A stretch of DNA of 64,000 nt from Candidatus Saccharimonadales bacterium (GCA_038319685.1 JBBQDN010000005.1:15277-79276); one strand, 5' to 3'. Shown: positions 15,708 to 37,936, counted from the first letter of the stretch. A program made the numbers and translations. Notes: a model not told the origin generated them from the sequence alone.

Positions 15708-16745
15708 ATGACTCTGTTGCGCCGACTTAAGGTTCAGAACTTTCGTACTCACATCACGATGGACGTGAGTATTCATGACGGCGTGACACTTATTACGGGT
15801 TCGAACGGAAGTGGTAAAACATCACTTATCGAAGCGATCTATATTGCCCTGCGTGGTTCGTCGTTTCGTGGGGTTGATATGGATATTGTTCGGCATAGTA
15901 GCGAGTGGTGGCGGGTCGATCTATTAGATGATGACCAGGCGACCCGCAGTGTAATGTTTGACTCATCGAAATCAACCGGACGTAAACGGTTTATTATCGA
16001 CAGTAAAACGACGTATCGCTTACCTCAAAAACACAAATGGCCGGTTGTATTGTTTGAACCGGATGACCTTCGGTTACTCCATGGCTCACCTGCGCGCCGT
16101 CGATTATTTATTGATCGCTTCATAGGCCAGTTAGACCCACTGTACACGACGGTACTTCATAAATACGAACGAGGACTCAAGCAACGGAATAATTTGCTTA
16201 AAAAGCAGTATATTGCCGATGACGAGCTGTTTGTTTGGGATCTATTACTTAGTGAATATGGTGCAGAGATTATTCAAAAACGAGTTCACTATATTGAATT
16301 ACTACAATCCGAGCTGTCGGACACCTATAATTCAATTGCACATACGGATGATGAGGTGAAAATTCATTATTCACACGACATTACAAGACAAAAACTACTG
16401 AGTGATTTTCATGAACATCACAGTAAAGACAAAGCTATGGGTAATACAAGCGTCGGACCACATCGACACGACATAGACTTTATCTTTAATAGTATGCCTG
16501 CAACGACCGTTGCGTCACGGGGTGAAATACGAAGTGTTGTTCTTGCGCTTAAATTCCTTGAAGTAAAGATTATTGAATCAGGACTTGGCATGAAACCAAT
16601 TATCTTACTTGACGATGTTTACAGTGAACTTGACGAAACACGTCGTCATAAACTTGTCGATAGTATCAAGACATACCAGGTTATTATGACGAACACACAT
16701 GGATTACCAGAAGCGAAAACATATCATCATATTGAACTTGTTTAA
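15708..16745 (+). CDS. recF: DNA replication/repair protein RecF
   Basis: L.V.NFR, Walker A GSNGSGKTSLIEAI, LLDDVYSELD (Walker B/D-loop). Confidence 0.9.
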   Translation: MTLLRRLKVQNFRTHITMDVSIHDGVTLITGSNGSGKTSLIEAIYIALRGSSFRGVDMDIVRHSSEWWRVDLLDDDQATRSVMFDSSKSTGRKRFIIDSKTTYRLPQKHKWPVVLFEPDDLRLLHGSPARRRLFIDRFIGQLDPLYTTVLHKYERGLKQRNNLLKKQYIADDELFVWDLLLSEYGAEIIQKRVHYIELLQSELSDTYNSIAHTDDEVKIHYSHDITRQKLLSDFHEHHSKDKAMGNTSVGPHRHDIDFIFNSMPATTVASRGEIRSVVLALKFLEVKIIESGLGMKPIILLDDVYSELDETRRHKLVDSIKTYQVIMTNTHGLPEAKTYHHIELV

Positions 16746-17419
16746 TTAATAAGAACAGGCAGACCTAGATCGATAGCGTTTACTTTACTCAGTACGTCAT
16801 GAGGAATCTGAGGATATTGTTTTGATGAGAGTGTGACTCCGGGTGGGTTCGTGACGAGTACCCAATTACCTTTTTCTTTTTTCATAACGAACCGCAGGCG
16901 ATCACGGCTAAGGGATTCTTTACCGGTGTAATTAAGCGTACTTCCAAACCATTCACCATGACTATATAACTTTCCTTCGTTTAACGAATAAAGTGTTTTC
17001 AGTGTTGGGCTATCGCGGTCAAGAGCAGCTAATATATCAGGTAATTCAGCTTTGAGCTGTGACATGAGGTATGTATCGCTATAGTCGACATCTATTTTTT
17101 GTGTCACAGGTTTGTCGCCGACAAGTACTCTGATCGTCTTGCTTTTAATACTATCACCAGTTGCTTTGAGTGTATACGTCCCCTTTTTCAGAGTTATTTC
17201 TTTACCCTGTTCAATAACTTGATTGAGTGTTCCAAGCGAACTAGAGATACCCGTATTTGGCTCACCGTTATATAATTCCATTTTTTTCACCAGCGCACTA
17301 TCAAACGTAATAGTAAGTTTTTGAATCGAATTTAAGTAACTCGCATAGATAAGTATTGGCGTCACGATAATGATAAGTACGACGGAGATAATAATTAGTT
17401 TTCGGTATTTATATAACAT
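16742..17419 (-). CDS. bitopic membrane protein, function unknown (last gene of T4SS-like block)
   Basis: N-terminal KLIIISVVLIIIVTPILIYA anchor followed by a ~195-aa soluble domain. 3-nt gap to the upstream gene. Convergent 4-nt overlap with recF. Confidence 0.55.
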   Translation of the reverse strand: MLYKYRKLIIISVVLIIIVTPILIYASYLNSIQKLTITFDSALVKKMELYNGEPNTGISSSLGTLNQVIEQGKEITLKKGTYTLKATGDSIKSKTIRVLVGDKPVTQKIDVDYSDTYLMSQLKAELPDILAALDRDSPTLKTLYSLNEGKLYSHGEWFGSTLNYTGKESLSRDRLRFVMKKEKGNWVLVTNPPGVTLSSKQYPQIPHDVLSKVNAIDLGLPVLIN

Positions 17420-17422
17420 AGC

Positions 17423-17794
17423 TTATTTCTCCAACGGATTCTTGAAATCAATAAATTCAATTTTATAATCGGTAACGTCATATCCCCAGGCTTTTAACTT
17501 TTCAATCGCCACATAACGATAACGTGGTGATGGTGTCCGGATGGTTATGACAATATCATTACTCGTTTCACCAACCGTTTTATAGGCAATTGTATAATAC
17601 GGATCAATGTACGGTAATCGTGTTGTGATTGGATTGTCGTCGATGAATGATGTTCTGACATCAACTGTCGCCGGTGGCTGTGATTTGGACAATAATATCC
17701 CACCAATAACGACAAATATAACTATTCCTCCGATTATTAGTAGCGTAATGAGCCTGCTGTTTTTGTCAATAAAATCTTTTATCATATTCCCCAC
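17423..17794 (-). CDS. bitopic membrane protein, function unknown (T4SS-like block)
   Basis: Single N-terminal TM (LITLLIIGGIVIFVVIGGILL). 1-nt gap to the upstream gene. Confidence 0.55.
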   Translation of the reverse strand: MGNMIKDFIDKNSRLITLLIIGGIVIFVVIGGILLSKSQPPATVDVRTSFIDDNPITTRLPYIDPYYTIAYKTVGETSNDIVITIRTPSPRYRYVAIEKLKAWGYDVTDYKIEFIDFKNPLEK

Positions 17795-17795
17795 C

Positions 17796-18281
17796 TTACA
17801 TATCTACCGAAGGTTCATTTTTAATTGTCTTTGACGTATCATCGTCAATTTTTAGACTAAAATGTGACATATCTATATCTGTTATAGTGACAAATATATA
17901 TTTTTTACTATCAACCTCGCCGAGTCTCACTTTAAAGCTATATACTCTAGTATTCTTGGTATATGTCAGTGATTTTGCGTTAATTGCTACCTGTTTATAG
18001 GTGTTTTTATATGTATCAATGACAGTTGTTTTTAGTAGTGATACAACTTTTTTAGATTGGTGAGAGCCCATTCCTTTATCGATAAGGAGTGAACTTCCAT
18101 ATAGAGAGAATTCACTTGCTTTTTCACCCGATGTTACACCGTTAACGGTGATAATCTGGCCAGTATCAGGATCGAGCGTATCGTAACTGACTTTGAATTT
18201 TGCTTGGTAAATAAAGTATACTCCCAAGGCAGACAAGATGAGGACGAATATAAGGCTAGCTATAATAATATATCGTTTCAT
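17796..18281 (-). CDS. bitopic membrane protein, function unknown (T4SS-like block)
   Basis: Single N-terminal TM (YIIIASLIFVLILSALGVYFI). Tightly packed in the operon. Confidence 0.55.
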   Translation of the reverse strand: MKRYIIIASLIFVLILSALGVYFIYQAKFKVSYDTLDPDTGQIITVNGVTSGEKASEFSLYGSSLLIDKGMGSHQSKKVVSLLKTTVIDTYKNTYKQVAINAKSLTYTKNTRVYSFKVRLGEVDSKKYIFVTITDIDMSHFSLKIDDDTSKTIKNEPSVDM

Positions 18282-18292
18282 ATCATACCTTT

Positions 18293-20668
18293 CTATGGTT
18301 TTATCGCTATCGTTGCACTTCGGAAATCAGACGCGCCGTATATAAGGTTTGGATCCCATGGTTTTTGGTTATAAGCGTCAGTTCCAGAAGATGGTGCTGC
18401 GGAATCACCAATAAGATACTGGCCGTCAGGAGTGATGCCTCGGAGGACGATGAAGTGTCCTGCGGTAGTAAATGGTTTTGCACCAGCACCACTCACGATT
18501 ACCATATTTCCGGCTTTAAGTGCCGCATCGATTGAATCTTTAATACCTGCTGGTGCACCTGTATAGGCGAATAATAGCTGACTTTTCACCCCCCAGTTTT
18601 CCAGAATTCTTGGCATTTGAGCTGCATCATAAGGTGTTGAGTTTGCTTTAATCCATTCTCCGACGATATAAGGATTTATTGACTTGTCTTTCCAGGTTGC
18701 AATCACCATGGCCGGTGCGCTTGCACCACAGGCATTGCCCGCATACGATCCACCAGAATATTCTTTTTGGCCCCACTGCGGGTCGCCTTGGCGATAGAAT
18801 ACAAAATCACCTGCCGCAACACCCGTACCGGTTGTATTTCCTGTGCAGCCCGACGTGGATGCAGTGGTTGAAGTTCCTGCTGAAGTTGGCGCGCCTGGTG
18901 CGATACTCGCGTTATCGACGTAAAGATCATACACTCGTTTTGCTTCGCCACCACGAACACGACGGACATCGCTAGGAGAATCATTTGATTCTTCGTAGCC
19001 ACGGAAATTATCACTCGGAGTTCTGATATTTTCACCTTTGCGTCCATGAATAGTAATTGCCGCTTCGATTGGGTCAGTCTCTGTTTTTAGTATCTCTAAC
19101 ATTTTTGACCACTTTGGGCTATTTATTTCTTCCCATACGAACCCTAATTGACCACCCATGTCGAGCATATTGACCTTTTTTGCTTTCATGAATGCAACGA
19201 GAGGATCTTGCCGTTCTGGGAATGTCCACTGGACTAATCCAAACCCAGTCCCACTTTTTGGAACATAATTTGGATCACTTGTTGTTGTGCTTGGTTGTAC
19301 TGAAGCTGGGTTTAATCCTGATTCTTGGACCATGTTACCTATAAATCCTGAAGCTTGAGCAAGGGTCAACCCATTATTCATAAAGAAACTGAGTATTTTT
19401 TCAGTATTATCCTTACCTGTCAGTGTAATTGATCCTGCTGAACTTGCCGCGCAGCACCCAGCATTATTACTACTTGTGGCGGTAGATACAGGTGTTCCAC
19501 CGCGGAATCGAATTGCATGTTGGTAGGCGGCTTCGATTTTATCAGCCGAAACCTTATCCTTCACTGTTTTGATGACAGCCCCAATATCAGTATTGGTGAA
19601 TAAAGGCATATCAACACCAGCATTCATAGCTGCAGCAACTGCATCAGGGACGGTTAATCCAGAGTAACTTGCCATCGGTGATAAATCGTCAGTGGTAATA
19701 GTGCCTGAAAAACCAACTATTTCACGAAGGTAATTAACCGCTTGGGGATTGATACTGACAGGTGTTGAACCCCATTCATTGATTCGTCCATTACTTAACA
19801 TAACTGCGGCACCATTAAGGTTACCTAGTGTTTTATATGGTTTTAATTGTCCTGTATCTTCGAGGTTTTTGAGACTCTGCGAAGCTGCTTGACCATTATC
19901 AGTGTTTTGTGTAAGATCACCAATACCTGGAAAATGTTTATAGACGGGTTTTACTCCTCCGTTACTAAGCCCCTTCGCAAACGCGCCGGCCTTTTCTGAA
20001 ATCACATCTGGGTTTGTTGACCAAGTTCGATGAGAGGTTGTCATAAAACCAGCAGAATTTTGAATATCAAGGACTGGTGCTAGGTCGACGTTTACTCCAT
20101 TTGCGATTAAAGTAGTGGCGACTTTTTTACCTTGGGCCTCGATATCCGTCGCCGACATACTCGCACCCATATCCTGCGCAGATGGCATATCAGGGACAAA
20201 ACGAGTCACATCTCCACCTTCGTCATCAGCACTAATAAACATCGGCGTACCATTAGTATCATTAAGGGCTTTAAAGAATGCCGGAGTTAATTTAGAGAAG
20301 TCAGCTCCGTTAAAGAATACGCCGCCAATTTTAAAATCAGTCACTGCTTTATTCACTGCTTCGGTCTGAGTTGGGTCGTATCCGACAATAAACGTTTGTG
20401 CGATTTTTTGTTCCGGGGTGATTGTGGCTGGTGCTGCAGTTGCGACACCAGTAGGTGTGGCGGAGCAAGATTTTGCCGTACGGCTATAAGTGAGGATATC
20501 GTTTCCGGAATAAAACGCAGGGTCATCACCTTTTATAATGGGGTCGTCGACAGCATAAGCGACCGCCGGTGTGATTGTTGATATAATAAAAGCGCTCGCA
20601 AGTGTCAAGATGAGAGCTCTTTGTGAGAGTCGTTTAAGAGATAGGACTATTTTTTGAATGGTTTTCAT
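18293..20668 (-). CDS. three-domain cell-wall hydrolase: GH3 (NagZ-like beta-N-acetylhexosaminidase) + lysozyme-like + C39-like/papain-like Cys peptidase
   Basis: Signal/anchor LILTLASAFIISTITPAVAYA. GH3 motifs SADDEGG, DLAPVLD, KHFPGIGD. Central FIGNMVQESGLNP...GFGLVQWT resembles a phage-tail-lysozyme-type motif. C-terminal GNACGASAPAMVIA ... AGHFIVLRGI forms a Cys/His pair. Confidence 0.7.
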   Translation of the reverse strand: MKTIQKIVLSLKRLSQRALILTLASAFIISTITPAVAYAVDDPIIKGDDPAFYSGNDILTYSRTAKSCSATPTGVATAAPATITPEQKIAQTFIVGYDPTQTEAVNKAVTDFKIGGVFFNGADFSKLTPAFFKALNDTNGTPMFISADDEGGDVTRFVPDMPSAQDMGASMSATDIEAQGKKVATTLIANGVNVDLAPVLDIQNSAGFMTTSHRTWSTNPDVISEKAGAFAKGLSNGGVKPVYKHFPGIGDLTQNTDNGQAASQSLKNLEDTGQLKPYKTLGNLNGAAVMLSNGRINEWGSTPVSINPQAVNYLREIVGFSGTITTDDLSPMASYSGLTVPDAVAAAMNAGVDMPLFTNTDIGAVIKTVKDKVSADKIEAAYQHAIRFRGGTPVSTATSSNNAGCCAASSAGSITLTGKDNTEKILSFFMNNGLTLAQASGFIGNMVQESGLNPASVQPSTTTSDPNYVPKSGTGFGLVQWTFPERQDPLVAFMKAKKVNMLDMGGQLGFVWEEINSPKWSKMLEILKTETDPIEAAITIHGRKGENIRTPSDNFRGYEESNDSPSDVRRVRGGEAKRVYDLYVDNASIAPGAPTSAGTSTTASTSGCTGNTTGTGVAAGDFVFYRQGDPQWGQKEYSGGSYAGNACGASAPAMVIATWKDKSINPYIVGEWIKANSTPYDAAQMPRILENWGVKSQLLFAYTGAPAGIKDSIDAALKAGNMVIVSGAGAKPFTTAGHFIVLRGITPDGQYLIGDSAAPSSGTDAYNQKPWDPNLIYGASDFRSATIAIKP

Positions 20669-21156
20669 GAAAGTGCAACCCTTACTTGTGGGGGAAAATT
20701 AGTCGTATCCGGAAACGTTGTTCCTGGACCAGCGACAATGACGAGTCCTCCAGCGGCTGTGCCGTTATCTTTGAGGATGATTTTTGCATCATCAGTTTGA
20801 ACGTTTGTTAGTCTGACGGTTACAATGTACCATGCTGTGACCGGTGACGTAAAGCTGACGATTGTAAAATTAGCTTTCCCTACTGAACTAACAAGTGACA
20901 TTGGAGCTGCTTTTATTATAGCGCTATTTAAATCACTTGCCGTTCGATTCGGATATTGATTTATTTTAATTGGACTATTTTCGACCGATGGAGTGACGGT
21001 AGGTTTGATAACCTCCGGGATTTTATTAGTCGTATCCGTATCGTTCGTCACACCTATTTCAGAGGGTTGTTTCATAAGTATATACCACGTCAGTACACCC
21101 GCTACTGTAAAGATACAGGCACATATACTTATGATTATTTTTGTTCTCGTTATCAT
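20665..21156 (-). CDS. bitopic membrane protein, function unknown (T4SS-like block)
   Basis: N-terminal TM IIISICACIFTVAGVLTWYIL. 4-nt overlaps with both neighbours. Confidence 0.55.
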   Translation of the reverse strand: MITRTKIIISICACIFTVAGVLTWYILMKQPSEIGVTNDTDTTNKIPEVIKPTVTPSVENSPIKINQYPNRTASDLNSAIIKAAPMSLVSSVGKANFTIVSFTSPVTAWYIVTVRLTNVQTDDAKIILKDNGTAAGGLVIVAGPGTTFPDTTNFPPQVRVALS

Positions 21157-24100
21157 GCTGCTACTCCTGATTTTTTAAATCGAAGGACATGTTCCCAAGC
21201 ACCGTACGTTCCACTAGCAGGTCCGATTTGCTTTGGAAAAGCCGTGTCCTGAGTATGTGCCCCAAATTGTTGGAATTTTTGACCCGCAACATCATTCGAC
21301 ACAATAATCTCCGTATGACCACTTCGTAGAAGTATGTCTCCTGGTTTAGCATCGGCCTTTGAAACCTCTACGAAATTGGAATTTCCAAGCATATTTGAGG
21401 TCGCAATACCACCGACGTCGACGCCGAATGCGTCATAGATTGACATACGTATCAGCCCACTACAGTCAACAATCGAATCAGTTCCAGCAACAAACCCACC
21501 GGCATTAAACTTCGTCATAAAATCAGCAGCTGTTCCGTCATGTCCACCACCCCATAAGTAGCCATAATCATCGAATTTAAATGCATGGCAGCTAATTTGC
21601 GCTAGATCATCGGCAGCCAGTGTTTTACAGGCTTCAGGGGCTGTTGCAGATACGGTACTTCCGTCCGCTGTTCCTGCGCCACCTTGAGCACTTGGGTCAA
21701 CTTCCGCATCCATACCGTCATTAATCGGGTTATCTATATTGTAGACGCGGAAGTATTTGTAGTCACCCCCCTCACCGTCGGTCAGACATTCGGCACCAAG
21801 TCCTACACCGTTATTATCGTCAGCTTCATCAGATTCACCCCACCCAGCTTGCCTATCAGTGCATGATTTCTGCCACTGCGCGTAGCGACTGTCAGTAATA
21901 GCTTCGCCAGTATCACCGTTAATTTGCTGATGATCAAGCATGTAATCAACAGCAACTGTTGAATCCATATTTAATTCATCGTTCGGTAGTACATAGCGAA
22001 CATTACAAAAAACATCAGCGTCAATCCCAACATCTTCGTAACCAGAATCAGTACATTTACTAAATCGATCTTCGTTAAAAATCTGTGCAGCATTTGCTTG
22101 TGGAATAATACTACTAAATGCTGTTCCAATAAATGTTGGAATAGTTGTCATAGCTGCCGATACGCTACTCATCGAACCGACGATTGTCGGATTTATTTTA
22201 CGGACCAGCGATCCCATGAAGGAGTATTGTTTTGTAATATCAAATGGTGTATCTTTCGCGTCATATGTTTCTGAGGCAATGTTTTGCTGTTTGACTTCAT
22301 TTGTGGCGGCAAAATATGACTTAAGAGTCTGTTTATTGCCAGGTTGAAGTCCACGTTTTTGTGCAAAACCACCAAGTAACGCACCTCCACCGGCAAACAC
22401 TGCATCGCCCGCATCGACACCTGCTGTGTCATGGTTAACAACCGTACCGGCCACAATATCTGCCAGGGATGCTTCAAGGAACGGCATCGCAAAACCAATA
22501 GCGAGTGAACCACCAACGGATACAATAGTACTAATGCCGAAAGTTCCAATCGAAGAAACCAGACCACCAATCAGACCAATCGTACGCGCCCACCAACTCT
22601 GCACTGTTTTACAGACACTACGAATATTCGCACGTCCTTCTTTAGAGTTACCGCCTCCAGCACCAATAACACCTGCAATAGTATCAAGAACATTTGCGAG
22701 TGTACCAGTTAATCCTCCTCCGACCATATACTGTGCTGAACGTGACGTTAAAGTTGGCGCTTCATTATAGGCTGCTACTTTGTAGCCCGGTGAGTCAAGT
22801 GCATTCTTGCCGTAGAATGGGTTTTCTGTTTGTTTTGTTTGAATAACGCCAGATGAGTCGGCACCTGTAATTGTTGACTCATCAGTTGCATACTTAGTTG
22901 TATCGACGGCGGTTAGTTTTTTACCGATATAATTAGCTTCTGTATCTGTCGCATCACCTGCTTTGATGGAATCTGCAAAATTAAAAAACACCATCGCAAA
23001 CTGCGCAAGTTGTATGGCGCGGGTAATTTTTGCGGCCGCTGCAACAGCACGTGCAGTGTTATACACAGTACAGGCAGTATCAGCTGCTCCTGTAATAGAT
23101 AGTCCTTTAAAGCCTGCTTTTAACACTCCACCCGTTGCTTTCTTTCCAGCACCAGCTATATCATTAATATGCCCCACTTGACCTGGATTGCTAGCAATTT
23201 CAGTAAACCTCGGGTTGGCGGTTCCGTCAGGGAGATTTTCGTATACTTTATCAGTTCCGTCAAGATAATATTTGCCGTTACTATCTTCTTGGACAACGCT
23301 CGCTTTATCGACAAGTCCCGTAAAAGCTTTATCACCCGCGGTGGCGTTATCGACTGCTTTGTTTCGTTCTTCATCCGTCGCACCTACGACCTTTTTTGAT
23401 TTATCCGTTTTAAAATTCGCAAACATTTTTTTAGCAATTGAATCCGAAAACCCTGCGAACTTAGGATTATATGCTTTATGGAGTGCACTTCTGAGGCCAG
23501 GGTCTGTCTTCGCTAATCTTGTTAATTCTCCCGGATCACCCATTCTTTTTCCATCGGGTGTCGTCAAACCCGTAACTTTACTTCGTCCAGGAATTGGGCT
23601 ATTTTCTCTTTCTACTTTAAAACCAGCCTTTTCAAACTTTGAAATCTGTCTGTTTGACATAGAAGTAAATTTACAGCGAATTTTTACTCCCGTACAAACA
23701 CTTAGTTTTGGCGAAAGTCCGCTAAGTCGTGCACGGAGCACATGATCAGAACGAAAGTCCATTGCAGTTAGTTGATCATCCAAATCACCCATAATCGTTT
23801 CTTTTAGTTGTACAGGTAAGATCGAAAGACTCGTGAAAGCAAAGAATCCGCCGCCGCCGAATAACAAGGCGAGAATGAAACCAGTTGCACCCTTTTTTTT
23901 GAAAACTTTTGAAATATTACTAAAATTCAAACGGTTATTTGAGGCAGGTGCGCCACCTGCTGTGGTTGAATTTTTCCACCCGCCGGTATTCTCTTCTTTA
24001 TCTTTGGCATCATTGCGATTTTTATTGCCATCACCGTCGTATTTACTGGACTGATTTGATTTTTTACCAGATCCAGAATCGGAACTATCACCACTATCAT

Positions 24101-24245
24101 GGTTCGCTGGGTCATTGGCAAATGCCTCGGCGTCATCAGTACCTTGTTTTGCGTAGGCGTCGGGGAACTGTTCGGCAGCTTGAACCTCGCCGGGATTGTA
24201 GGCGGCATCTTGTTCTTCTTTGGTATCGTTAGTTCTCAGAGCCAT
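21153..24245 (-). CDS. 1030-aa membrane protein with C-terminal NlpC/P60 peptidoglycan endopeptidase domain
   Basis: Acidic disordered N-terminus (~110 aa). TM segments GFILALLFGGGGFFAFTSL and IGLIGGLVSSIGTFGISTIVSVGGSLAIGFAMPF. C-terminal DCSGLIRMSIYDAFG ... GDILLRSGHTEIIV is the NlpC/P60 Cys-His pattern. Confidence 0.7.
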   Translation of the reverse strand: MALRTNDTKEEQDAAYNPGEVQAAEQFPDAYAKQGTDDAEAFANDPANHDSGDSSDSGSGKKSNQSSKYDGDGNKNRNDAKDKEENTGGWKNSTTAGGAPASNNRLNFSNISKVFKKKGATGFILALLFGGGGFFAFTSLSILPVQLKETIMGDLDDQLTAMDFRSDHVLRARLSGLSPKLSVCTGVKIRCKFTSMSNRQISKFEKAGFKVERENSPIPGRSKVTGLTTPDGKRMGDPGELTRLAKTDPGLRSALHKAYNPKFAGFSDSIAKKMFANFKTDKSKKVVGATDEERNKAVDNATAGDKAFTGLVDKASVVQEDSNGKYYLDGTDKVYENLPDGTANPRFTEIASNPGQVGHINDIAGAGKKATGGVLKAGFKGLSITGAADTACTVYNTARAVAAAAKITRAIQLAQFAMVFFNFADSIKAGDATDTEANYIGKKLTAVDTTKYATDESTITGADSSGVIQTKQTENPFYGKNALDSPGYKVAAYNEAPTLTSRSAQYMVGGGLTGTLANVLDTIAGVIGAGGGNSKEGRANIRSVCKTVQSWWARTIGLIGGLVSSIGTFGISTIVSVGGSLAIGFAMPFLEASLADIVAGTVVNHDTAGVDAGDAVFAGGGALLGGFAQKRGLQPGNKQTLKSYFAATNEVKQQNIASETYDAKDTPFDITKQYSFMGSLVRKINPTIVGSMSSVSAAMTTIPTFIGTAFSSIIPQANAAQIFNEDRFSKCTDSGYEDVGIDADVFCNVRYVLPNDELNMDSTVAVDYMLDHQQINGDTGEAITDSRYAQWQKSCTDRQAGWGESDEADDNNGVGLGAECLTDGEGGDYKYFRVYNIDNPINDGMDAEVDPSAQGGAGTADGSTVSATAPEACKTLAADDLAQISCHAFKFDDYGYLWGGGHDGTAADFMTKFNAGGFVAGTDSIVDCSGLIRMSIYDAFGVDVGGIATSNMLGNSNFVEVSKADAKPGDILLRSGHTEIIVSNDVAGQKFQQFGAHTQDTAFPKQIGPASGTYGAWEHVLRFKKSGVAA

Positions 24246-24257
24246 AAAATACTTCTA

Positions 24258-26980: not shown

Positions 26981-27013
26981 GATTCCCCACTCTTCCTACC
27001 TTATCCTCTATCT

Positions 27014-28042: not shown

Positions 28043-28166
28043 ACTGGTTATTAGTATATCATTTTGTCACAATGTCGCGGTCATCATACTCGTGGTTTTT
28101 TAAATGCAAGAACGCGCACCATCGTAACGGTGTGCTTCGTATAATGAACACTAAATCTTGTTTGCG

Positions 28167-31100: not shown

Positions 31101-31208
31101 ATTATCCACGGGGGCCGCAAGTGCGAGATTCGATAGAGAAATAGTACTAATAACCGTCGAAACGATCATCAAAAGTGCAAGTAGTGAGTACTTTATTTTT
31201 GTCTTCAT
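28167..31208 (-). CDS. giant VirB6/TrbL-like polytopic T4SS channel protein, paralogue 1
   Basis: I chose ATG 31208 (MKTKIKYSLLALLMIVSTVISTISLSNLALA signal; AAGG RBS). It has a ~370-aa Cys-rich ectodomain, the motif CAIDGIGWIVCPV, at least 6 TM helices, and a ~400-aa helical/low-complexity C-tail. Confidence 0.6.
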   Translation of the reverse strand: MKTKIKYSLLALLMIVSTVISTISLSNLALAAPVDNVSIDDQANAFIYYRALAACAKTAPFRPVGNTYNISAGDVANGSWFSVDHYVSTGIIRNGDAGQHGGTSYCDQPGFISSALAAFGYSGKTEAFCDLFSNADVKRTNGSPCGDGGSGDFSVSSDTGKRLDSVKRAIEIKYYGGAGNPGPPGYLEYYIGKATFEMYCADKIKSVATATTDEKAGAIAVAIITDAGAREDWLYKPKADISFNTDKIYTYGLENGDGNNPTCAQIKVLMMDPNVDAYAAWYATHKPVTCKDQYPRDAIGLAACDAGFVHKSDPAYCDITYPVSSSSDPDIPGNTACKFGATKAAGGADGIITTNPTVDNTKDNPTTCAIDGIGWIVCPVLKFMAGIVDGAYGIVASLLTVQPVVTGSTGIYNAWSAMRNISNVVFVIVFLIIIFSQVTSVGITNYGIKKMLPRLVAAAILVNISFWICSIAVDASNIIGTSVNGVFKGLAGSLTVPDSATINGASTGGSGWLGLTTAAVIAGAAVLYITLSALLPALIVALLAIVTVFVVLTVRQALIVLLIVISPLAFVAFLLPNTESLFKKWRGLFQTMLLMFPIIGLMFGASALASQVIISTASSQASSPPYIVAIQIMGALVAIVPLALTPIIMKAAGGVLGKVGAFVNNPNKGPFDRMKKGARGFADDQKTRRGIRALDENKWSMPGRGAALKRRGRIDTQRSGRTDQLKDLQNEAILKKAVKDPEFAASVAGANAVGYQARAQGQLNKIDKEKVENEEFLLKAKFEPHQLVAGLQTELSNAIATANDTGQSEQVRSAAGNRARAAAGILTSQTGAKGVAALRETLSTSNPGTDTELGQSLRKDISSAGIKGKDAGLDAWSRTAPGTSLTDESSKASTWSGLSHEQIAGQTESAIQSAASSGGLTGETAAAVLGNEKISAGMGTKEKAALQSIADISARAKGEANYVSDVDSAQQTAIDHAGRLRETGRETNIEIAHEDASMQNALHDMENRNNNGS

Positions 31209-31247
31209 GTCATAAACCTTATGATTACATTTAACAACACTAGACAT

Positions 31248-31282
31248 AAAAATACCAGCCCGTCGTTAGGGCTGGTATTTTT
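31248..31282 (-). terminator. intra-operon hairpin with flanking T/A runs (bidirectional rho-independent-like)
   Basis: AAAAATACCAGCCC-gtcgtta-GGGCTGGTATTTTT. Sits between the 425-aa gene stop (31300) and the paralogue-1 start (31208). Confidence 0.5.
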
Positions 31283-31299
31283 CATTTTAGCAACAAGAA

Positions 31300-32577
31300 C
31301 TACTGCACTGTTAATACGTCTGAGGTGTAGATGGCAGACTCAGTCTTGCCGGTGTTAGGATTTACCACATCGTGTACTACAAAAACCAGTTCCGAGTAAC
31401 CAGTACTATTACCTAGCGCTACTTTAGTAAAGTCGATTGAATAACTCGTTGGGTTTATTGGTTTGCGAATTGAATCTGCAAGAGGCGTAGCTGTCTCATA
31501 TGCAGGAATATCGTCTTGTTGAAAATCATGGCTGTTGTATGCATCGACGGCAGGTTGATATGCTCGAAGACCGACAAAGTTAATACTTTCAAGGTAAAGA
31601 CGTCCAAGCTGTTTGTTTTGCGAGCCAATATAATAAGCAAGGTAATCACGGAGTTTAACATTGTCGAGTACTTTCTGATCTGAGCTATCGACTGTTATAT
31701 CAACAGACTTTTCCAGGTCACTAGCTAGCGCAGGGTCGTCGAGTCGAATCTTAGCAATCGCATCCAGTACATTATTGCGATAAAGGAAAGTGGCCATTTG
31801 ATCAAACTCTTTCCCTGATGCCTCTTTGCTATATGTCAATGGATCCATTTCTGACCAATTTTTCGCAGCGATTTGATTAAAAGATGCTTGGGTTTCGGGA
31901 GATAGTTGATCCCAAAGTCCAGCCCCACCTTTAAGAGGATCATTTTCGGAAACAGTTGTTTCGGGCGTTGTCGTTACTGATGATCCCATATCGCCACTTG
32001 CTGGTACCCCTACTTCGGACGTAGGTGCAGGAGTGGATTCTATAACGACACTAGTTGCGCCTTGTTCGACAGTGCTAGGTGCGAGTGTGCCAGGGATGAC
32101 GGGCGCAGTGGCCGTCGGTTCTACATTTGACGGAGTAGATTCGTTACTAGACGTCGCTGCTTTGATGCCAACTGCTGCACCTACTGTAAATACAAGCGCA
32201 AGCGCACCAATACGAATTTTTGAACCAAGTGACCTAGGTTGTTTGTTGTGTTGTATATGAAGTGCTTCGAGATGAGCACGACCCGCTGCCATTTCAGCAT
32301 CCGTTATTGGGCCGGCACTTTCACTTAAATCCCCAGGAATAGCAAATGGAACTTCCGTATGAACATAGGAACCAACGCCACCTGGATTAGAAATGGTATC
32401 CGGAGCGAGCCAACCCTGATCAGCAACAGCATCAGGAAGACCAGTTTCTCTATAGTGTTTTGTTCCGGGAACCTCAATAGGTTTTCCGTCGGGTCCAATA
32501 AGACCCGAGTGGCGGGCTTGTTCCGCTGCACTACGTGATGATGGTTCTGGGTTTGGTCCTGATGTTTCAAAAGCCAT
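31300..32577 (-). CDS. bitopic membrane protein (cytoplasmic N-domain, 1 TM, S/T/P linker, ~210-aa ectodomain); VirB8-analogue candidate
   Basis: TM IGALALVFTVGAAVGI at ~aa 123-140. The topology is like VirB8/PrgL/TcpC. No sequence motif recognised. Confidence 0.35.
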   Translation of the reverse strand: MAFETSGPNPEPSSRSAAEQARHSGLIGPDGKPIEVPGTKHYRETGLPDAVADQGWLAPDTISNPGGVGSYVHTEVPFAIPGDLSESAGPITDAEMAAGRAHLEALHIQHNKQPRSLGSKIRIGALALVFTVGAAVGIKAATSSNESTPSNVEPTATAPVIPGTLAPSTVEQGATSVVIESTPAPTSEVGVPASGDMGSSVTTTPETTVSENDPLKGGAGLWDQLSPETQASFNQIAAKNWSEMDPLTYSKEASGKEFDQMATFLYRNNVLDAIAKIRLDDPALASDLEKSVDITVDSSDQKVLDNVKLRDYLAYYIGSQNKQLGRLYLESINFVGLRAYQPAVDAYNSHDFQQDDIPAYETATPLADSIRKPINPTSYSIDFTKVALGNSTGYSELVFVVHDVVNPNTGKTESAIYTSDVLTVQ

Positions 32578-32629
32578 GGTTTACAGTTCCTTGTGCGCTT
32601 ACTTGGGCACGTAATGTACTAATGCTTTT

Positions 32630-32658
32630 ACTATACACTATTTTTTAATAAAAAGCAA
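32630..32658 (-). promoter_or_regulatory. sigma70-like promoter upstream of the 425-aa gene
   Basis: On the minus strand: TTGCTT (32658-32653), 17-nt spacer, TATAGT (32635-32630). An AAGGAA RBS precedes ATG 32577. Confidence 0.35.
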
Positions 32659-32711
32659 CATGTTTATTGATATGTCAAGAATTGATTTTAAAAAACGGAT
32701 GTGTTTATGGA

Positions 32712-35318
32712 CTAAATACCAAGTCGGTCACGGATCTCAGGTTTAATGAGACGCAGGGTTTCAGGGCTGGACGTAAGGTTTCCTATGAGTTTCGCATACG
32801 CTACAGGATCTCCAGCTACAGGATCGGTAAGTTTATCAATTGCATGATGCTGCATTGTTGAGTTTGATGCGGCAAACTTATCGGATGCCAAGTTTCTCCA
32901 AGTCGCGATATCTTCATTGATTGTATTAAACGTTACTGTTGGACCCTTGGCGTTGTTAATCCAATCATCGAAGCTCTTTCCGGCCTTACGGATATCGCCA
33001 TTCATACCAAGTACTTCTTTGAAATCGAGTAGATCCTGAGTTGCAGGAGCGCTACTTTCGTAGGTTGTAATAATATCAGCAAGTTTTGCGATACCGGGTG
33101 GGCCATTTTTTGCGATGGTATTTGCATATGCGATGCGCTGAGATAATGTCGTCGACGTATTAAAAGCAGTCTCCAAACGGCCAATGTCCGTCGATAGCGC
33201 GTAGTCCATGGTGTCTTGAATGTTCTTTGTGTCCTCTACGTACGATTGACTAACGGTTGCCTTTGCTCTTGCGAGAACTGAGTTTTGGCCTTGTTCACCC
33301 ATAACTCCACCTGCGAGCACAAGCCGTATAGGATCCGTCTTGAGGGCATCTGCGAGGTCAATTTGTCCAGCACGTTCGGCTTGTTGTTTACGCATTCCTT
33401 GTATTGCAATAGACTGTGCGGTGACATGACTATCACTAACAAGGGTACTCATCGGTGTACCTGCGGCGTACGCAGTGCCACCACGACCACTTTCCCATTC
33501 TTTTGTTTCAGCGTCCCAAGTTGCTTTTGCGTCTTCTGTTTGGCGGGTGGCAAGGTGTTGGGTTAGTCTCTGTGCACGCATACCTGGGTTGGTAATCGCG
33601 TAGCGTTCCTGGTCCGCTTCAACTTGTGCTTCAGACATAGAGACATCTAATTTAGCAATGCGAAGATTCGTTTCATCAGCACGAACTCGGACATTACTGA
33701 GGCGCATATCGTTAAATGCCTTGTCTATAACAGCTTGAGCGGTATCTTTCTTAATACCTGCATGAGTCATACGATGGCTAGCGTCCTGGTAGCCCTTATC
33801 ACCCATACCGTGTGCTTCGGATTCGGCTTCGTAGGCTTTCTTCCATTGTTGTTCGCGCATATGTTTGACGTGTTTGCGCTGGGCACTGGCGCGGAAGGCG
33901 TTACGTTTTGGTGGGGTTGCAAGTGAGCGAGCTTTATGGTGGTCAGCCCGTTCTTTGCTCCAGTTACGGGTACGGTCTAAAATGCCCTTTTTCGGATTGT
34001 TGACCATACCGGCAATACGGCCAAGCAGTGAACCACTCAGTTTAATCAGGAGTGGTGTGATAACAACTGGAGCGATCTGCACCATCATACCCAGGATGAG
34101 AATAACGATTGAATCGGCGTTTTGAATAATCGCCGTTCCTGCCAGCTGCGATCCGCCGAATACGATCGAAAACATCGGGAACATGATCAGGAGGGTCATG
34201 AATGTATCTTTCCATTTATCGAATAATTTTTCAGTATTGGGTAAAAGGAATGCGACGAATGCGAGTGGTGAGAGGATGACAAGAATCGTGATAAGTGCCT
34301 GACGAGCGGCGAGCACGAGGATGGCGACGACTGCTGCGAGCAAGACAATGACCAGTCCTGGAAGGAGTAAGTAGATCGCAGCAGCAAATCCACCACCTGT
34401 TGCAACGATTGCCGAATGAACGGCGATTGCCCCTGCCCCGAGCGCTGTTGCACCACCGAGCACTGCAGCGGTCACGACTTCCCAACCGGTCACGTTCCAG
34501 CTATTCCCAGTGGTTCCGACGATTTGGTTACGAATCGAAATAAAGATATCTTGGATAGAATAGCCAAGGATATTTGACACGTCAACCGCAACCGAACAAA
34601 TCCAGTACGATATATTCACTAAAATAGCCGCGACGATGAGGCGCGGAAGTAGCTTCTTGATACCATAATTGGTCATCATCCCACCAACGAGTTGTGAGTA
34701 AATAATAATGAGGAATGCAATGACAAACGCAACGTTTGCGAAACTTTGCATGACTGACCAAGCACGGTAAAGTGCTGCCTGCTGATTTGTTTGCACCGGT
34801 CGCACTTCGAGGAAACTACTGATGATGCCAAACAGCCAGTCCATTGCTTTGGCGAGGAAATTGGTGACAGGACAGACAATCCAGCCGATACCATCGACCA
34901 CACAGCTTGTCGTGCTGGTTGTGGGACTTGCTGCTGACGGGGTGATATTAACGGTTGATGGTGATGATGGGTTGGTATAGACACCAGGCGGCGTGTAGTC
35001 ATAGGTGACATAGGTTGCGGCGGCTGCTGTCGGCGGATCGGTACCGGGTGCAAAATAAATAACGTAAGCTTTAGACAGAATTGCCGGGGCAATCGGTGCT
35101 GAATCGATAGAAGTATAGTATTTACTACCAGGAGTGATACCAAGGCCATCCGTAGCTGTTGCATCGGTCGGTCCAGTAAAGGTTTTACCGTCGTAACTGA
35201 TTGATTGACCTGTCCACGTAGCGTCGGCAGGAGCAGCATGCGTTGGCTGGACGGTAAAAAGGATACTTGAAAGGATAGCCAAGATGGCGGTCATGGCAAA
35301 AACAAACAACATTCGCAT
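32712..35318 (-). CDS. giant VirB6/TrbL-like polytopic T4SS channel protein, paralogue 2
   Basis: I chose ATG 35318 (MRMLFVFAMTAILAILSSILFTVQPTHA signal; AGGGGT RBS). The track's extra 75 aa run into the divergent promoter region. Contains motif CVVDGIGWIVCPV, at least 6 TM helices and a ~430-aa helical C-tail. Confidence 0.6.
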   Translation of the reverse strand: MRMLFVFAMTAILAILSSILFTVQPTHAAPADATWTGQSISYDGKTFTGPTDATATDGLGITPGSKYYTSIDSAPIAPAILSKAYVIYFAPGTDPPTAAAATYVTYDYTPPGVYTNPSSPSTVNITPSAASPTTSTTSCVVDGIGWIVCPVTNFLAKAMDWLFGIISSFLEVRPVQTNQQAALYRAWSVMQSFANVAFVIAFLIIIYSQLVGGMMTNYGIKKLLPRLIVAAILVNISYWICSVAVDVSNILGYSIQDIFISIRNQIVGTTGNSWNVTGWEVVTAAVLGGATALGAGAIAVHSAIVATGGGFAAAIYLLLPGLVIVLLAAVVAILVLAARQALITILVILSPLAFVAFLLPNTEKLFDKWKDTFMTLLIMFPMFSIVFGGSQLAGTAIIQNADSIVILILGMMVQIAPVVITPLLIKLSGSLLGRIAGMVNNPKKGILDRTRNWSKERADHHKARSLATPPKRNAFRASAQRKHVKHMREQQWKKAYEAESEAHGMGDKGYQDASHRMTHAGIKKDTAQAVIDKAFNDMRLSNVRVRADETNLRIAKLDVSMSEAQVEADQERYAITNPGMRAQRLTQHLATRQTEDAKATWDAETKEWESGRGGTAYAAGTPMSTLVSDSHVTAQSIAIQGMRKQQAERAGQIDLADALKTDPIRLVLAGGVMGEQGQNSVLARAKATVSQSYVEDTKNIQDTMDYALSTDIGRLETAFNTSTTLSQRIAYANTIAKNGPPGIAKLADIITTYESSAPATQDLLDFKEVLGMNGDIRKAGKSFDDWINNAKGPTVTFNTINEDIATWRNLASDKFAASNSTMQHHAIDKLTDPVAGDPVAYAKLIGNLTSSPETLRLIKPEIRDRLGI

Positions 35319-35496
35319 AGAGTTACCCCTATGCGAAACGTACTTTTTCACGTCCCACATACAAATAATAATAGCACTATATGTCATAAAAGTCAATGCC
35401 CCGCGGAGCTTTATACCATATACTATAGTACCAAAAAAACACTCATTGTCGATATTGTTGCCAATCGCGCGTTTTTGTCGTACATTATAGATAGTT

Positions 35497-35904
35497 ATGA
35501 GCCTAAAACAAACAATAAAGATGTCACTACTAGGTACGGTCACCCTGGGTATAATTGGCCTATCGATTGGGACTACTCCGGCATTGGCACAGAGTCAGTG
35601 TGGTAAGGTAAATACTGCGATTATCACCTGTAGTCAACGAGAAACTGGTGACCTCAAAGACAGTGGTGTTTGGGGTATATTGATACTAGTCATTAATATT
35701 ATGACCGCCGGAATTGGTATATTGGCTGTTGGGGCGATTGCCTATGGGGCTATTTTGTATTCAACCGCCGGTGGAAGTGCTGAACAAACGAAAAAAGCAA
35801 TTACTGTTATTACAAATACGGTGATTGGGCTGGTTTGTTTTCTCTTTATGACCGCGATCCTTAATTTCCTGATTCCGGGAGGGATATTTAATGTCATACC
35901 GTAA
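35497..35904 (+). CDS. VirB2/TrbC-like T4SS pilin paralogue P1
   Basis: Signal ...IGTTPALA, a Cys pair (QSQCGKVNTAIITC), then a two-TM hairpin with loop YSTAGGSAEQTKKA. Confidence 0.55.
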   Translation: MSLKQTIKMSLLGTVTLGIIGLSIGTTPALAQSQCGKVNTAIITCSQRETGDLKDSGVWGILILVINIMTAGIGILAVGAIAYGAILYSTAGGSAEQTKKAITVITNTVIGLVCFLFMTAILNFLIPGGIFNVIP

Positions 35905-36595
35905 CGTCACCGTAAAATCACGAATTAAGAACTGGGTACTTGCCATATTTTTTGTTGCATCAACCGGGGGTGCACTGGTGACAACTGCCCTGCCTCAAAC
36001 GGCAAGCGCTGCATGTGCGACAAGTTTTTTCGGGATTCCCGCTTGGTATGACGGAATGATCGGTGGTGATTGTAGGGTGCTTGACCCGTCAAGTTTCCCC
36101 GGAGGTTTGTCGGGATTTATTTGGAGGATTGTCCTGAATGTTGTCGAGATTATTTTACTGGTGTCTGGCTATGTTGCTGCCGCGTTTATAATTGTTGGTG
36201 GGTTTAAATATATTACCAGTGCTGGATCGCCGGATGATTCAGTAAAAGCCAGAAAAACAATCATTAATGCAGTGATTGGGTTGGTGCTTTCGATGTCGTC
36301 GGTGGCGATTGTCAATGTCGTCACAACAACTGTTGTGGGTGGAGTAGATGCGACGGGCATTCCGACAATCAGTGCGGACGGCGTAACACTTGCTGCTATC
36401 CTTAACGCAGTGTATTTCTGGGCGGGTGCAATTGCCGTGCTGATGATCGCTATTGGCGGACTACTGTATGTTGTATCGGGGGGTACTGCGAGCAATATCA
36501 CCAAAGCAAAAGATACAATTATTTATGCATCGGTCGGGCTTATCATTATTATTATGGCGTTTACGATAACACAAGTCGTCATAGGAAGGTTTTAA
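35891..36595 (+). CDS. tandem double-domain VirB2/TrbC-like pilin P2
   Basis: Signal ...LPQTASA, a Cys pair, then two consecutive hairpin modules: GGFKYITSAGSPDDSVKARKTIINAVIG and GGLLYVVSGGTASNITKAKDTIIYASVG. Confidence 0.55.
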   Translation: MSYRNVTVKSRIKNWVLAIFFVASTGGALVTTALPQTASAACATSFFGIPAWYDGMIGGDCRVLDPSSFPGGLSGFIWRIVLNVVEIILLVSGYVAAAFIIVGGFKYITSAGSPDDSVKARKTIINAVIGLVLSMSSVAIVNVVTTTVVGGVDATGIPTISADGVTLAAILNAVYFWAGAIAVLMIAIGGLLYVVSGGTASNITKAKDTIIYASVGLIIIIMAFTITQVVIGRF

Positions 36596-36596
36596 T

Positions 36597-36965
36597 ATGA
36601 AAAAAATGAAACAATATGTCATGATGTTTGCGCTGGCCACGTGCCTGGCGGTTAGTGCTATTGCACCTGTTTACGCAGTAAACGTATTCCCTGCCTGTTC
36701 GGTTGATCCTGGGTCTGAGGTTTGTAAGGCGGCTGGAACCGACAGAGCCGACAGTACGATAAAAACCGTGATTAATACAGTCATTTATATTATCGGTATT
36801 GCGGCGGTCATCATGATTGTTATCGGTGGCCTGCGCTATGTTTTGTCGGGTGGTGATTCATCGGGAACTAAAGGTGCGAAGGATACGATCTTGTACGCAG
36901 TTATTGGTCTGGTGATCGCTATTCTGTCGTTTTCGATTGTTAACTTTGTCGTTGGGAGATTTTAA
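36597..36965 (+). CDS. VirB2/TrbC-like T4SS pilin paralogue P3
   Basis: Signal ...IAPVYA, Cys pair ACSVDPGSEVC, and hairpin IGGLRYVLSGGDSSGTKGAKDTILYAVIG. GGAAGG RBS. Confidence 0.6.
   Translation: MKKMKQYVMMFALATCLAVSAIAPVYAVNVFPACSVDPGSEVCKAAGTDRADSTIKTVINTVIYIIGIAAVIMIVIGGLRYVLSGGDSSGTKGAKDTILYAVIGLVIAILSFSIVNFVVGRF
36799..36857 (+). repeat. 59-nt tract identical to 37196-37254 (pilin P3 vs P4)
   Basis: By eye, ttgcggcggtcatcatgattgttatcggtggcctgcgctatgttttgtcgggtggtgat is identical in both genes. A 3-nt indel follows, then high identity continues. Confidence 0.85.
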
Positions 36966-36966
36966 T

Positions 36967-37365
36967 ATGAAAGTAATAAAAAGGAAGTATATGAAAAAAC
37001 TACAGATGATTATTGTGAGCTTCGTTGCATTATTTGCGATTGGTGCGGGAAGTTTAGTACTTAGTCCACAAACGAGCTATGCAACTCCGGCGGATGAAAT
37101 CAAAAAAGGCGTGACGAATGTTGGTGGCGGCACCAGTGGAACGCTTGACGCGGGTATCAAAAATGCCATCAACGTGATCCTGTATGTCACCGGTGTTGCG
37201 GCGGTCATCATGATTGTTATCGGTGGCCTGCGCTATGTTTTGTCGGGTGGTGATAGTTCATCGACCAAAGGTGCGAAGGATACAATTCTGTATGCTGTAG
37301 TGGGACTTATCGTGGCGATTATCGCGTATGCGATTGTTAACTTTGTCGTCGGTGCGTTTAGCTAG
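36967..37365 (+). CDS. VirB2/TrbC-like T4SS pilin paralogue P4
   Basis: Start is ATG 36967 or 36991 (both have an RBS). Signal ...PQTSYA, no Cys pair, hairpin IGGLRYVLSGGDSSSTKGAKDTILYAVVG. Confidence 0.6.
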   Translation: MKVIKRKYMKKLQMIIVSFVALFAIGAGSLVLSPQTSYATPADEIKKGVTNVGGGTSGTLDAGIKNAINVILYVTGVAAVIMIVIGGLRYVLSGGDSSSTKGAKDTILYAVVGLIVAIIAYAIVNFVVGAFS

Positions 37366-37409
37366 CCCCGTAAACTAACATATTCAGGAAAGCATAAGCC
37401 AAATGGCTA

Positions 37410-37438
37410 TTAACAAATAGCGCCCAATCTGCTATAAA
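37410..37438 (+). promoter_or_regulatory. sigma70-like promoter for pilin P5
   Basis: TTAACA (37410-37415), 17-nt spacer, TATAAA (37433-37438). An AAGAAAGGAA RBS precedes ATG 37473. Confidence 0.35.
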
Positions 37439-37472
37439 CTAAAGAGAGTAAATCCTAAGAAAGGAATTAAAA

Positions 37473-37880
37473 ATGAAACGAACATTAAAGAAAATAGCTC
37501 AGAGCCTCCTTCTGGTTCCAGTTGTTGCACTTGGTGTAAGCCTGGCGCTTCCAGCCGTTGCCCCAACAAACGCGAACGCCGCATTCAATGGCGGTATCAG
37601 CAACGGTGCAGCTGACAGTAAAGGTACTGGCCAACAAGATAATCTTGATGGTACGGATGGTGTGTTTAAAACCGTCACAAACGTGATGCTGTACATCATT
37701 GGTGCGATTTCTGTCATCATGTTGATCATCGGTGGTATCCGCTATGTGGTATCAGGTGGTGAAAGCAGTGCAGTTACCGGTGCAAAAAACACCATTCTGT
37801 ATGCGGTTATCGGTATTATCGTTGCGATCATTGCGTACGCACTGGTCAACTTCGTTATTACAAGTTTCTCAGCACCATAG
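37473..37880 (+). CDS. VirB2/TrbC-like T4SS pilin paralogue P5
   Basis: Signal ...PTNANA and hairpin IGGIRYVVSGGESSAVTGAKNTILYAVIG. Confidence 0.6.
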   Translation: MKRTLKKIAQSLLLVPVVALGVSLALPAVAPTNANAAFNGGISNGAADSKGTGQQDNLDGTDGVFKTVTNVMLYIIGAISVIMLIIGGIRYVVSGGESSAVTGAKNTILYAVIGIIVAIIAYALVNFVITSFSAP

Positions 37881-37901
37881 TTTAGCAGACGCTCGTTTGT
37901 A

Positions 37902-37936
37902 TACTCCCCTCTTACTACAGAGGGGAGTATTTATTT
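37902..37936 (+). terminator. rho-independent terminator of the pilin operon
   Basis: TACTCCCCTCT-tacta-cAGAGGGGAGTA followed by TTTATTT. Confidence 0.75.

Follow-up and report, generated by a model that had tools for sequence, protein, structure and literature searches.

A 64,000-nt stretch of DNA from a Candidatus Saccharimonadales bacterium (metagenome-assembled genome GCA_038319685.1, JBBQDN010000005.1:15277-79276; hereafter the window, meaning the whole stretch at its full length) carries a chromosomal locus for a type IV secretion system (T4SS) with its own pilins (Table 1). The locus is the T4SS/pilin cluster known from near the chromosomal origin of almost all Saccharibacteria. It is real but already published, and the window adds one more member of a locus described between 2020 and 2025, not a new kind of element. 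Very probably, it is a vertically inherited chromosomal T4SS of the Saccharimonadia that corresponds to the genes SEML1_0004-0019 of Southlakia epibionticum ML1 and serves epibiosis, not conjugation.

The region has been described across Saccharibacteria, including TM7x (McLean et al., 2020; PMC7427843). In S. epibionticum ML1, nearly all SEML1_0004-0019 genes are essential according to transposon sequencing (Tn-seq), and the authors point out the pilins and the missing coupling protein and relaxase (Wang et al., Cell 2023; PMC10633639). A survey of T4SSs in Patescibacteria (Quinonero-Coronel et al., Microb Genom 2025; PMC12102498) reports MPF_FATA ancestry, TrsD beside virB4, VirB2 arrays and scarce relaxases. 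It also describes coupling-protein genes that mostly lie well away from virB4 and are dispensable in ML1, and a proximity to dnaA for which a gene-dosage effect is suggested. In a 2025 review (PMC12857230), these systems are listed as the latest additions to the T4SS superfamily.

Gene for gene, the locus in the window matches SEML1_0004-0019 in order and orientation, including a 4-nt convergent overlap with recF; this correspondence rests on the published gene table (order, orientation and annotations) and not on a comparison of protein sequences. Counted from recF, both loci encode small exported proteins, a multi-domain lysozyme/peptidase, a protein of about 1000 amino acids (aa), VirB4, a protein of about 280 aa, PrgI, a VirB6-like protein, a small variable protein, a second VirB6-like protein and a divergent pilin array. 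Both are flanked by hsp20, comF, tRNA-Ser, a polytopic protein and an extra pilin, and coupling protein and relaxase are absent nearby in both. The two loci differ in the number of pilin genes (five in the window, one of them double, versus six in ML1) and of small bitopic genes between recF and the large protein (four versus two). The N-terminal domain of the hydrolase is GH3 in the window and a glucosaminidase in ML1, while the C-terminus of the large protein looks NlpC/P60-like in the window and has a DD-peptidase fold in ML1. Between the VirB6-like genes, the window has an unrelated 425-aa near-orphan in place of the non-essential NTF2-like SEML1_0012.

The locus likewise resembles the T4SS clade of Patescibacteria (PMC12102498) in its MPF_FATA-like VirB4, TrsD beside virB4, PrgI-type VirB3 and VirB2-like array, in the lack of a nearby relaxase or coupling protein and in the closeness of dnaA, dnaN and rnpA; there is no substantive difference. 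With the conjugative T4SSs of monoderm bacteria (pGO1 and pIP501 with TrsD/TrsE and TraD/TraE, and CTn2/CD1110) it shares a VirB4 that passes the CD1110 threshold, the pair of TrsD-like protein and VirB4, a PrgI-type VirB3, a multi-domain cell-wall hydrolase and the lack of VirB7, VirB9, VirB10 and VirB11. In contrast to these systems, the window shows no relaxase, coupling protein or surface adhesin match, and the locus is chromosomally fixed and essential in a relative. Furthermore, monoderm conjugative T4SSs are generally without a VirB2-like pilin array, whereas the locus in the window has one.

Chromosomal setting and conservation of the locus

The minus-strand block comprises open reading frames (ORFs) of 225, 123, 161, 791, 163, 1030, 631, 275, 342, 1026, 425 and 868-943 aa. 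These are separated by gaps of 1, 3, 11, 12, 33, 52, 124 and 134 nt or joined by three same-strand overlaps of 4 nt (20665-20668), 4 nt (21153-21156) and 1 nt (26153). The last gene of the block overlaps recF convergently at 16742-16745. On the left, the window annotation gives jag, yidC and rnpA, followed by dnaA, dnaN and recF; on the right, past the pilins, lie hsp20, a ComF-family gene, tRNA-Ser, a protein with eight transmembrane (TM) segments and a sixth pilin. A cluster of four DnaA boxes in the rpmH-dnaA spacer (12785-12899), which holds the only perfect DnaA box of the window, is separated from the end of the T4SS locus by about 3.9 kb. An earlier sequence-only reading of the window had described a tight co-directional 12-gene block, with gaps of at most 134 nt, facing a 5-gene pilin operon in a core-chromosome setting near dnaA and recF. 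This layout is borne out, and the setting is confirmed by the flanking genes, the DnaA boxes and the conserved position in relatives.

Between the two operons, consensus matching alone identifies a minus-strand promoter-like site (TTGACT-17-TATTAT with an upstream TG, 35396-35368) and a plus-strand one ahead of the pilin operon (35458-35486), and a terminator-like hairpin with a 12-bp stem follows the pilins at 37901-37930. The second VirB6-like gene more likely starts at ATG 35318, because a signal-peptide-like sequence follows Met76 and a promoter-like site lies upstream. The GTG start at 35543 was rejected since the gene would then run into the first pilin gene.

VirB4 has more than 8000 homologues, of which the best 120 are 87-100% identical. 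Where named, the matches are mostly Candidatus Saccharimonadales/Saccharibacteria or metagenome-derived. Copies in genomes labelled Saccharimonadales are 85-98% identical, and a relative occurs in at least 558 species-level genomes, almost all labelled Saccharibacteria. Near-identical VirB4 sequences are also found under records of Streptomyces caniscabiei (a contig of 957,675 bp), Flaviaesturariibacter, Acidobacteriota and Paracaedibacteraceae; most likely, these are Saccharibacteria contigs that were mis-binned or are contaminating. Among the 80 best loci, from which the counts of relative loci for single genes are taken, the order dnaA-dnaN-(recF), variable small genes, hydrolase, large protein, virB4, trsD-like, prgI, one or two virB6-like genes, pilins, hsp20 and comF recurs. 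dnaN lies no more than 10 kb from virB4 in 50 of the 53 loci with a full flank (median 6.4 kb). Within the same genomes, the median identity to the copies in the window is 87% for VirB4, 75% for dnaA, 68% for dnaN and 55% for recF. The conservation of VirB4 above that of dnaA and dnaN, together with the fixed position, thus argues for vertical inheritance under strong constraint and against a mobile element. From genome to genome, there is rapid turnover of the genes that lie among the conserved core genes, which is a minor addition to the published picture.

Across the approximately 64 ORFs of the window, there is no Pfam match to VirD4/TraG, TcpA, a relaxase, an integrase or VirB11, and no att-like direct repeats bracketing the locus were found; virB4 is the only match to the VirB4/VirD4 ATPase superfamily. 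Hence, the Pfam and repeat scans agree with the sequence-only reading, which had noted that coupling protein, relaxase, integrase, VirB11 and flanking repeats are absent from the 64 kb. A missing VirB11 is normal for monoderm T4SSs. Nevertheless, an integrated conjugative element (ICE), intact or decayed, might have its relaxase, coupling protein and integrase outside the window, as the analysis covers 64 kb of the genome only. The family of VirB4 (CD1110) is one typically found in conjugative elements of Firmicutes, and the pilins resemble a pilin-like family of Mycoplasma ICEs. This explanation is highly improbable, however: the locus holds a fixed position beside dnaA-dnaN in 50 of 53 species-level genomes, relaxases occur in only 103 Patescibacteria genomes and rarely near virB4 (PMC12102498), and growth of ML1 depends on the counterparts, an unusual property for genes of a mobile element. 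We reject it on the conserved position, on a conservation of VirB4 above that of dnaA in relatives and on the absence of integrase, relaxase, coupling-protein match and flanking repeats in the 64 kb.

Secretion machinery and pilins

Table 1. Features of the T4SS/pilin locus in the window (positions counted from the first letter of the window).
Feature	Position	Strand	Basis or remarks
Minus-strand gene block	16742-35318 (35543 with the longest start)	-	12 co-directional ORFs
Bitopic protein, 225 aa, last gene of the operon	16742-17419	-	N-terminal TM segment; position of SEML1_0004
Bitopic protein, 123 aa, variable accessory gene	17423-17794	-	TM segment at residues 15-33; in 12/80 loci
Bitopic protein, 161 aa, lineage-specific accessory gene	17796-18281	-	TM segment at residues 5-23; in 1/80 loci
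Exported three-domain cell-wall hydrolase, 791 aa	18293-20668	-	GH3, Phage_lysozyme2 and Peptidase_C39_2; position of SEML1_0006
Bitopic protein, 163 aa, lineage-specific	20665-21156	-	TM segment at residues 7-25; in 1/80 loci
Large membrane protein, 1030 aa	21153-24245	-	Directly downstream of virB4; position of SEML1_0007
VirB4 ATPase, MPF_FATA/CD1110 family	24258-26153	-	NCBIfam, Pfam, PDB, Walker motifs
TrsD-like protein, 275 aa	26153-26980	-	NCBIfam TrsD; position of SEML1_0009; 1-nt overlap with virB4
PrgI/VirB3-like protein	27014-28042	-	PF12666; N-terminal domain with two TM segments, then a ~250-aa extension whose fold is unknown
Extended VirB6-like polytopic protein 1	28167-31247	-	Signal peptide, ~340-aa outer domain, 6 TM segments, ~370-aa C-terminal domain
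Bitopic near-orphan, 425 aa	31300-32577	-	TM segment at residues 123-141; position of SEML1_0012
Extended VirB6-like polytopic protein 2	32712-35318	-	Paralogue of 28167-31247
Divergent promoter region, machinery and pilin operon	35319-35496	.	Promoter-like sites on both strands
Pilin operon, divergent from the minus-strand block	35497-37880	+	5 ORFs
VirB2-like pilin 1, divergent	35497-35904	+	PF18895 E = 0.006, 17 bits, below threshold; signal peptide and 2 TM segments
Tandem double VirB2-like pilin	35891-36595	+	PF18895 1.1e-16 in two stretches; signal peptide and 4 TM segments
VirB2-like pilin 3	36597-36965	+	PF18895 2.5e-10; TrbC/VirB2 5.6e-5; NCBIfam Mbov_0395 pilin-like 1e-7
VirB2-like pilin 4	36937-37365	+	PF18895 6.3e-9; 51% identical to pilin 3
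VirB2-like pilin 5	37473-37880	+	PF18895 4.4e-9
Sixth VirB2-like pilin, outside the locus span	40852-41382	-	PF18895 1.4e-6; 57% identical to pilin 5

The VirB4 ATPase scores 368.5 bits against NCBIfam NF045971 (VirB4-like conjugal transfer ATPase, CD1110 family; cut-off 325), and its second-best model is the Mycoplasma ICE ATPase Mbov_0397. Pfam PF19044 (1e-28, VirB4-type P-loop) and PF12846 match as well, as does the VirB4 C-terminal domain in PDB entry 4ag5 (1.6e-48), and the Walker A and B motifs read AKSGAGKS and MLIVDEAW. These matches confirm the VirB4 ATPase that had been named from its GAGKS and IVDEAW motifs. The part list, earlier called a Gram-positive 'minimal' T4SS, is accordingly of monoderm type and MPF_FATA-like, with a VirB4 that passes the CD1110 cut-off.

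The alignment of VirB4 to NF045971 covers model positions 173-734 of 752 and leaves the first ~170 positions unmatched. Directly beside it, the TrsD-like protein matches NCBIfam TrsD (2.8e-6, 27 bits versus a curated cut-off of 200 bits) and, weakly, the N-terminal parts of three VirB4 models. Its gene is found in 79 of the 80 relative loci at 68% identity. A Foldseek search of the PDB with its AlphaFold model (pLDDT 46) returns R388 T4SS entries in all of the top 13 places, where named TrwK/VirB4. The match of VirB4 from position ~173 and the matches of the TrsD-like protein to VirB4 N-terminal parts together suggest a split VirB4, of which the TrsD-like protein is probably the separately encoded N-terminal domain. 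This arrangement suggests a resemblance to the TrsD/TrsE pairs of pGO1-type plasmids and is a minor addition of the present analysis to the published picture.

PrgI is recognized by PF12666 (7.7e-12, 46 bits versus a cut-off of 27), which substantiates the PrgI/VirB3-like protein; its TM segments lie at residues 16-53, and the gene is present in 75 of the 80 relative loci. The two VirB6-like proteins share a core of 6-7 helices (43% identity, E = 1.5e-92), whose family comprises 15,113 cluster representatives in an exhaustive search. Among the 150 matches listed for this core, all are close relatives and none forms a bridge to canonical VirB6. TrbL is the only Pfam family that matches more than one of 50 family members scanned (10 of the 50 at E <= 1, best 9e-5). 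The first protein has no significant match of its own, the second reaches TrbL at E = 8.8 only, and the core profile yields low-complexity noise only against PDB sequences. Thus, the topology, with 6-7 TM segments and large soluble domains, fits the two VirB6/TrbL-like proteins that had been proposed, but profile searches with the window's own proteins give them no support.

VirB7, VirB9 and VirB10 have no family match in the window. As a stand-in for VirB8, the sequence-only reading had pointed to at least five small bitopic proteins. Five can indeed be counted, but the TrsD-like protein is not among them: it has zero predicted TM segments and is therefore probably cytoplasmic. The 225-aa protein has relatives in 14 of the 80 loci at ~28% identity and no family match in Pfam and NCBIfam scans; the 123-aa protein has no family match either. 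In the 425-aa near-orphan, a TM segment separates the conserved cytoplasmic N-terminus from a Pro/Thr-rich linker and an outer domain of ~215 aa; this protein is the best candidate for a VirB8 stand-in. A search of 5.8 billion proteins returned two matches, the protein itself and one homologue at 54% identity, and an AlphaFold model in which a VirB8/NTF2-like fold was sought failed (pLDDT 32) because only these two sequences exist.

Of two peptidoglycan hydrolases proposed earlier, the three-domain protein is firm, with matches to PF00933 (3.8e-44), PF18013 (9e-25) and PF13529 (2e-8) and to PDB entries 4yyf (9e-35), 6gfv (LpqI, 1e-32) and 3csr (3e-5). Its GH3 domain is nearest to the NagZ/LpqI beta-N-acetylglucosaminidases and is followed by a phi29 gp13-like lysozyme and a C39-like cysteine peptidase as second and third domains. 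The protein has a signal anchor at residues 18-36 and would serve as the VirB1 analogue. The second, the 1030-aa protein, has a sub-threshold NlpC/P60 match only (E = 0.0017, 18.7 bits, cut-off 23) and no PDB sequence match; it possibly carries a C-terminal NlpC/P60 peptidase. Relatives occur in 60 of the 80 loci at ~27% identity.

Four of the five pilin ORFs lie above the T4SS_pilin (PF18895) threshold, and the fifth, pilin 1, is a paralogue of pilin 3 (BLASTP 1e-6) that is present in 32 relative loci; the VirB2-like pilins are thereby verified. All share a signal peptide followed by paired TM helices, pairwise identity is 28-59%, and both halves of the double pilin align to other pilins. The sixth pilin adjoins the 8-TM protein, which has no family match (39439-40821, minus strand). 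In comparable positions, ML1 has the pilin SEML1_0024 and the GT-C-like glycosyltransferase SEML1_0023, both non-essential. The pair in the window hints at a separate, perhaps glycosylated, accessory pilin.

The pilins also resemble the NCBIfam Mbov_0395 family pilin-like conjugal transfer protein of Mycoplasma ICEs (best 2.1e-9, 36.9 bits, cut-off 40). Since Mbov_0397 is the second-best model for VirB4, two-helix pilin-like proteins may not be foreign to MPF_FATA. This likeness, a further minor addition, would run contrary to the remark that such pilins are absent from MPF_FATA systems (PMC12102498).

Proposed mechanism and role

A non-conjugative role, which the sequence-only reading had proposed, is supported by the fixed core position and the lack of DNA-processing genes in the 64 kb, and is already the published consensus (PMC10633639, PMC12102498, PMC11665869). 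In the machine as we picture it, a VirB4 hexamer would supply the energy together with its TrsD-like N-terminal-domain paralogue. The PrgI/VirB3-like protein would anchor VirB4 at the membrane, where it might dock on one or two of the extended VirB6-like proteins as the membrane channel. The multi-domain hydrolase, perhaps together with a C-terminal peptidase of the 1030-aa protein, would open the peptidoglycan. Pilins would be exported by Sec and inserted into the membrane, and VirB4 would then extract and polymerize them, so that a pilus or tube extends to the host bacterium. Most likely, the machine would act at the interface between epibiont and host, as a conduit for the uptake of host material or for the delivery of proteins to the host. 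In the diderm VirB/VirD4 system, pilus biogenesis requires VirB4 but not VirD4, which fits a pilin locus without a coupling protein. We infer pilus assembly as well as the direction and nature of the cargo, and take essentiality from ML1.

Several points weigh against this reading. The negatives on coupling protein and relaxase cover the window, and distant copies elsewhere in the genome are possible; in many Patescibacteria, VirD4-like genes have been reported at a long distance from virB4, and strain ML1, where the gene is non-essential, is one of them (PMC12102498). The fold evidence for the TrsD-like protein comes from a low-confidence model, and local hhalign finds no match between its family and VirB4, with shallow alignments (Neff ~2). 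The VirB6-like proteins are putative, assigned from topology and weak, indirect TrbL matches, and the VirB8-like component is a candidate only. Pilus, substrate and transport direction have been demonstrated for no member of the family, and a 2024 perspective calls the role of the T4SS 'completely unknown', raising effector delivery or ComB-like nucleic-acid uptake (PMC11665869).

Helicobacter pylori ComB and Bordetella Ptl work without a VirD4 coupling protein or relaxase; they show that DNA import or the export of Sec-delivered proteins is within reach of a VirB4-only T4SS. Unlike the locus in the window, the two are diderm systems and contain a VirB7-VirB10 core. The systems of Bordetella (Ptl), Xanthomonas and Streptococcus suis offer an analogy for an exporter of protein effectors, which would deliver hydrolases or toxins to the surface or interior of the host cell; this is a tentative and somewhat unlikely explanation. 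It has been offered as a speculation (PMC7427843, PMC10633639), protein export is known from T4SSs that have no coupling protein (Ptl, Brucella) and the operon encodes two large hydrolase-bearing proteins. However, no effector or recruitment signal was identified, and the hydrolases have ordinary N-terminal signal anchors that fit a VirB1-like assembly role. Moreover, Ptl secretes toxin subunits, while the small Sec-dependent secreted proteins in the window, whose like were once compared to pertussis toxin subunits, are VirB2-like pilins.

A ComB-like system for DNA uptake (competence) would feed ComEC/ComF for transformation or nucleotide supply. As in ComB, there are VirB2-, VirB3-, VirB4- and VirB6-like parts without coupling protein or relaxase, and a ComF-family gene (38598-39263, TIGR00201 6e-22) lies just past the pilins, an adjacency seen in 13 loci; the possibility has also been raised in PMC11665869. 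Published ML1 genetics nonetheless makes this quite unlikely: deletion of comEC ends transformation yet leaves the cells viable, while the T4SS is essential. The comF neighbour is non-essential in ML1, competence there is attributed to type IV pili, and the VirB7-VirB10 outer core has no family match in the window. Nucleic-acid import independent of ComEC is compatible with ML1 genetics.

A T4SS working in reverse as a feeding tube, with a VirB2-like pilus that VirB4 assembles in the absence of a coupling protein and that enters the host envelope and imports host nucleic acids or other macromolecules, is a speculation of rather low probability, raised in PMC11665869; tubular structures are noted in bioRxiv 10.64898/2026.06.21.733656. 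With equally little confidence, the hydrolases of the operon might then help penetration, and the imports might be molecules beyond the limited biosynthesis of the organism. Both the split VirB4 and the duplication of the extended VirB6-like proteins could be adaptations to such a task, which is similarly doubtful and to which the window adds no direct evidence.

Other genes of the window and significance of the system

Apart from the T4SS locus, the window contains a block of ~12 co-directional minus-strand ORFs with almost no family matches (44071-57147). One of them (56128-57147, minus strand) matches NCBIfam CPR_pilus_PamR, a pilus system RbmA-like protein (4.8e-37, 127 bits, cut-off 300), and two ORFs of the same block (52191-53252 and 53252-54325, minus strand) have weak Fn3-like matches. 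On these resemblances, the block may be a pam operon, which encodes the donor-strand-exchange pilus of CPR (Candidate Phyla Radiation) bacteria described in bioRxiv 10.64898/2026.03.03.709456. At 42653-43420 (plus strand), a 255-aa protein has a baeRF_family10 domain (bacterial archaeo-eukaryotic release-factor-like, 2.7e-17); its gene, preceded by an 89-aa ORF, is located opposite a Crp-family regulator (41673-42344). Near the left end, the region 2281-10654 encodes the alpha and beta subunits of a succinyl-CoA ligase-like enzyme and, after them, a glycosylation cluster of two GT2, two GtrA-like, one 860-aa PIG-L deacetylase fusion and one GT4 protein, a metabolic content unusual for a reduced genome.

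The T4SS matters as a system that is conserved across a whole class of ultrasmall epibiotic bacteria and, in the single species examined so far, essential. Its combination of a monoderm T4SS with VirB2-like pilins is unique.

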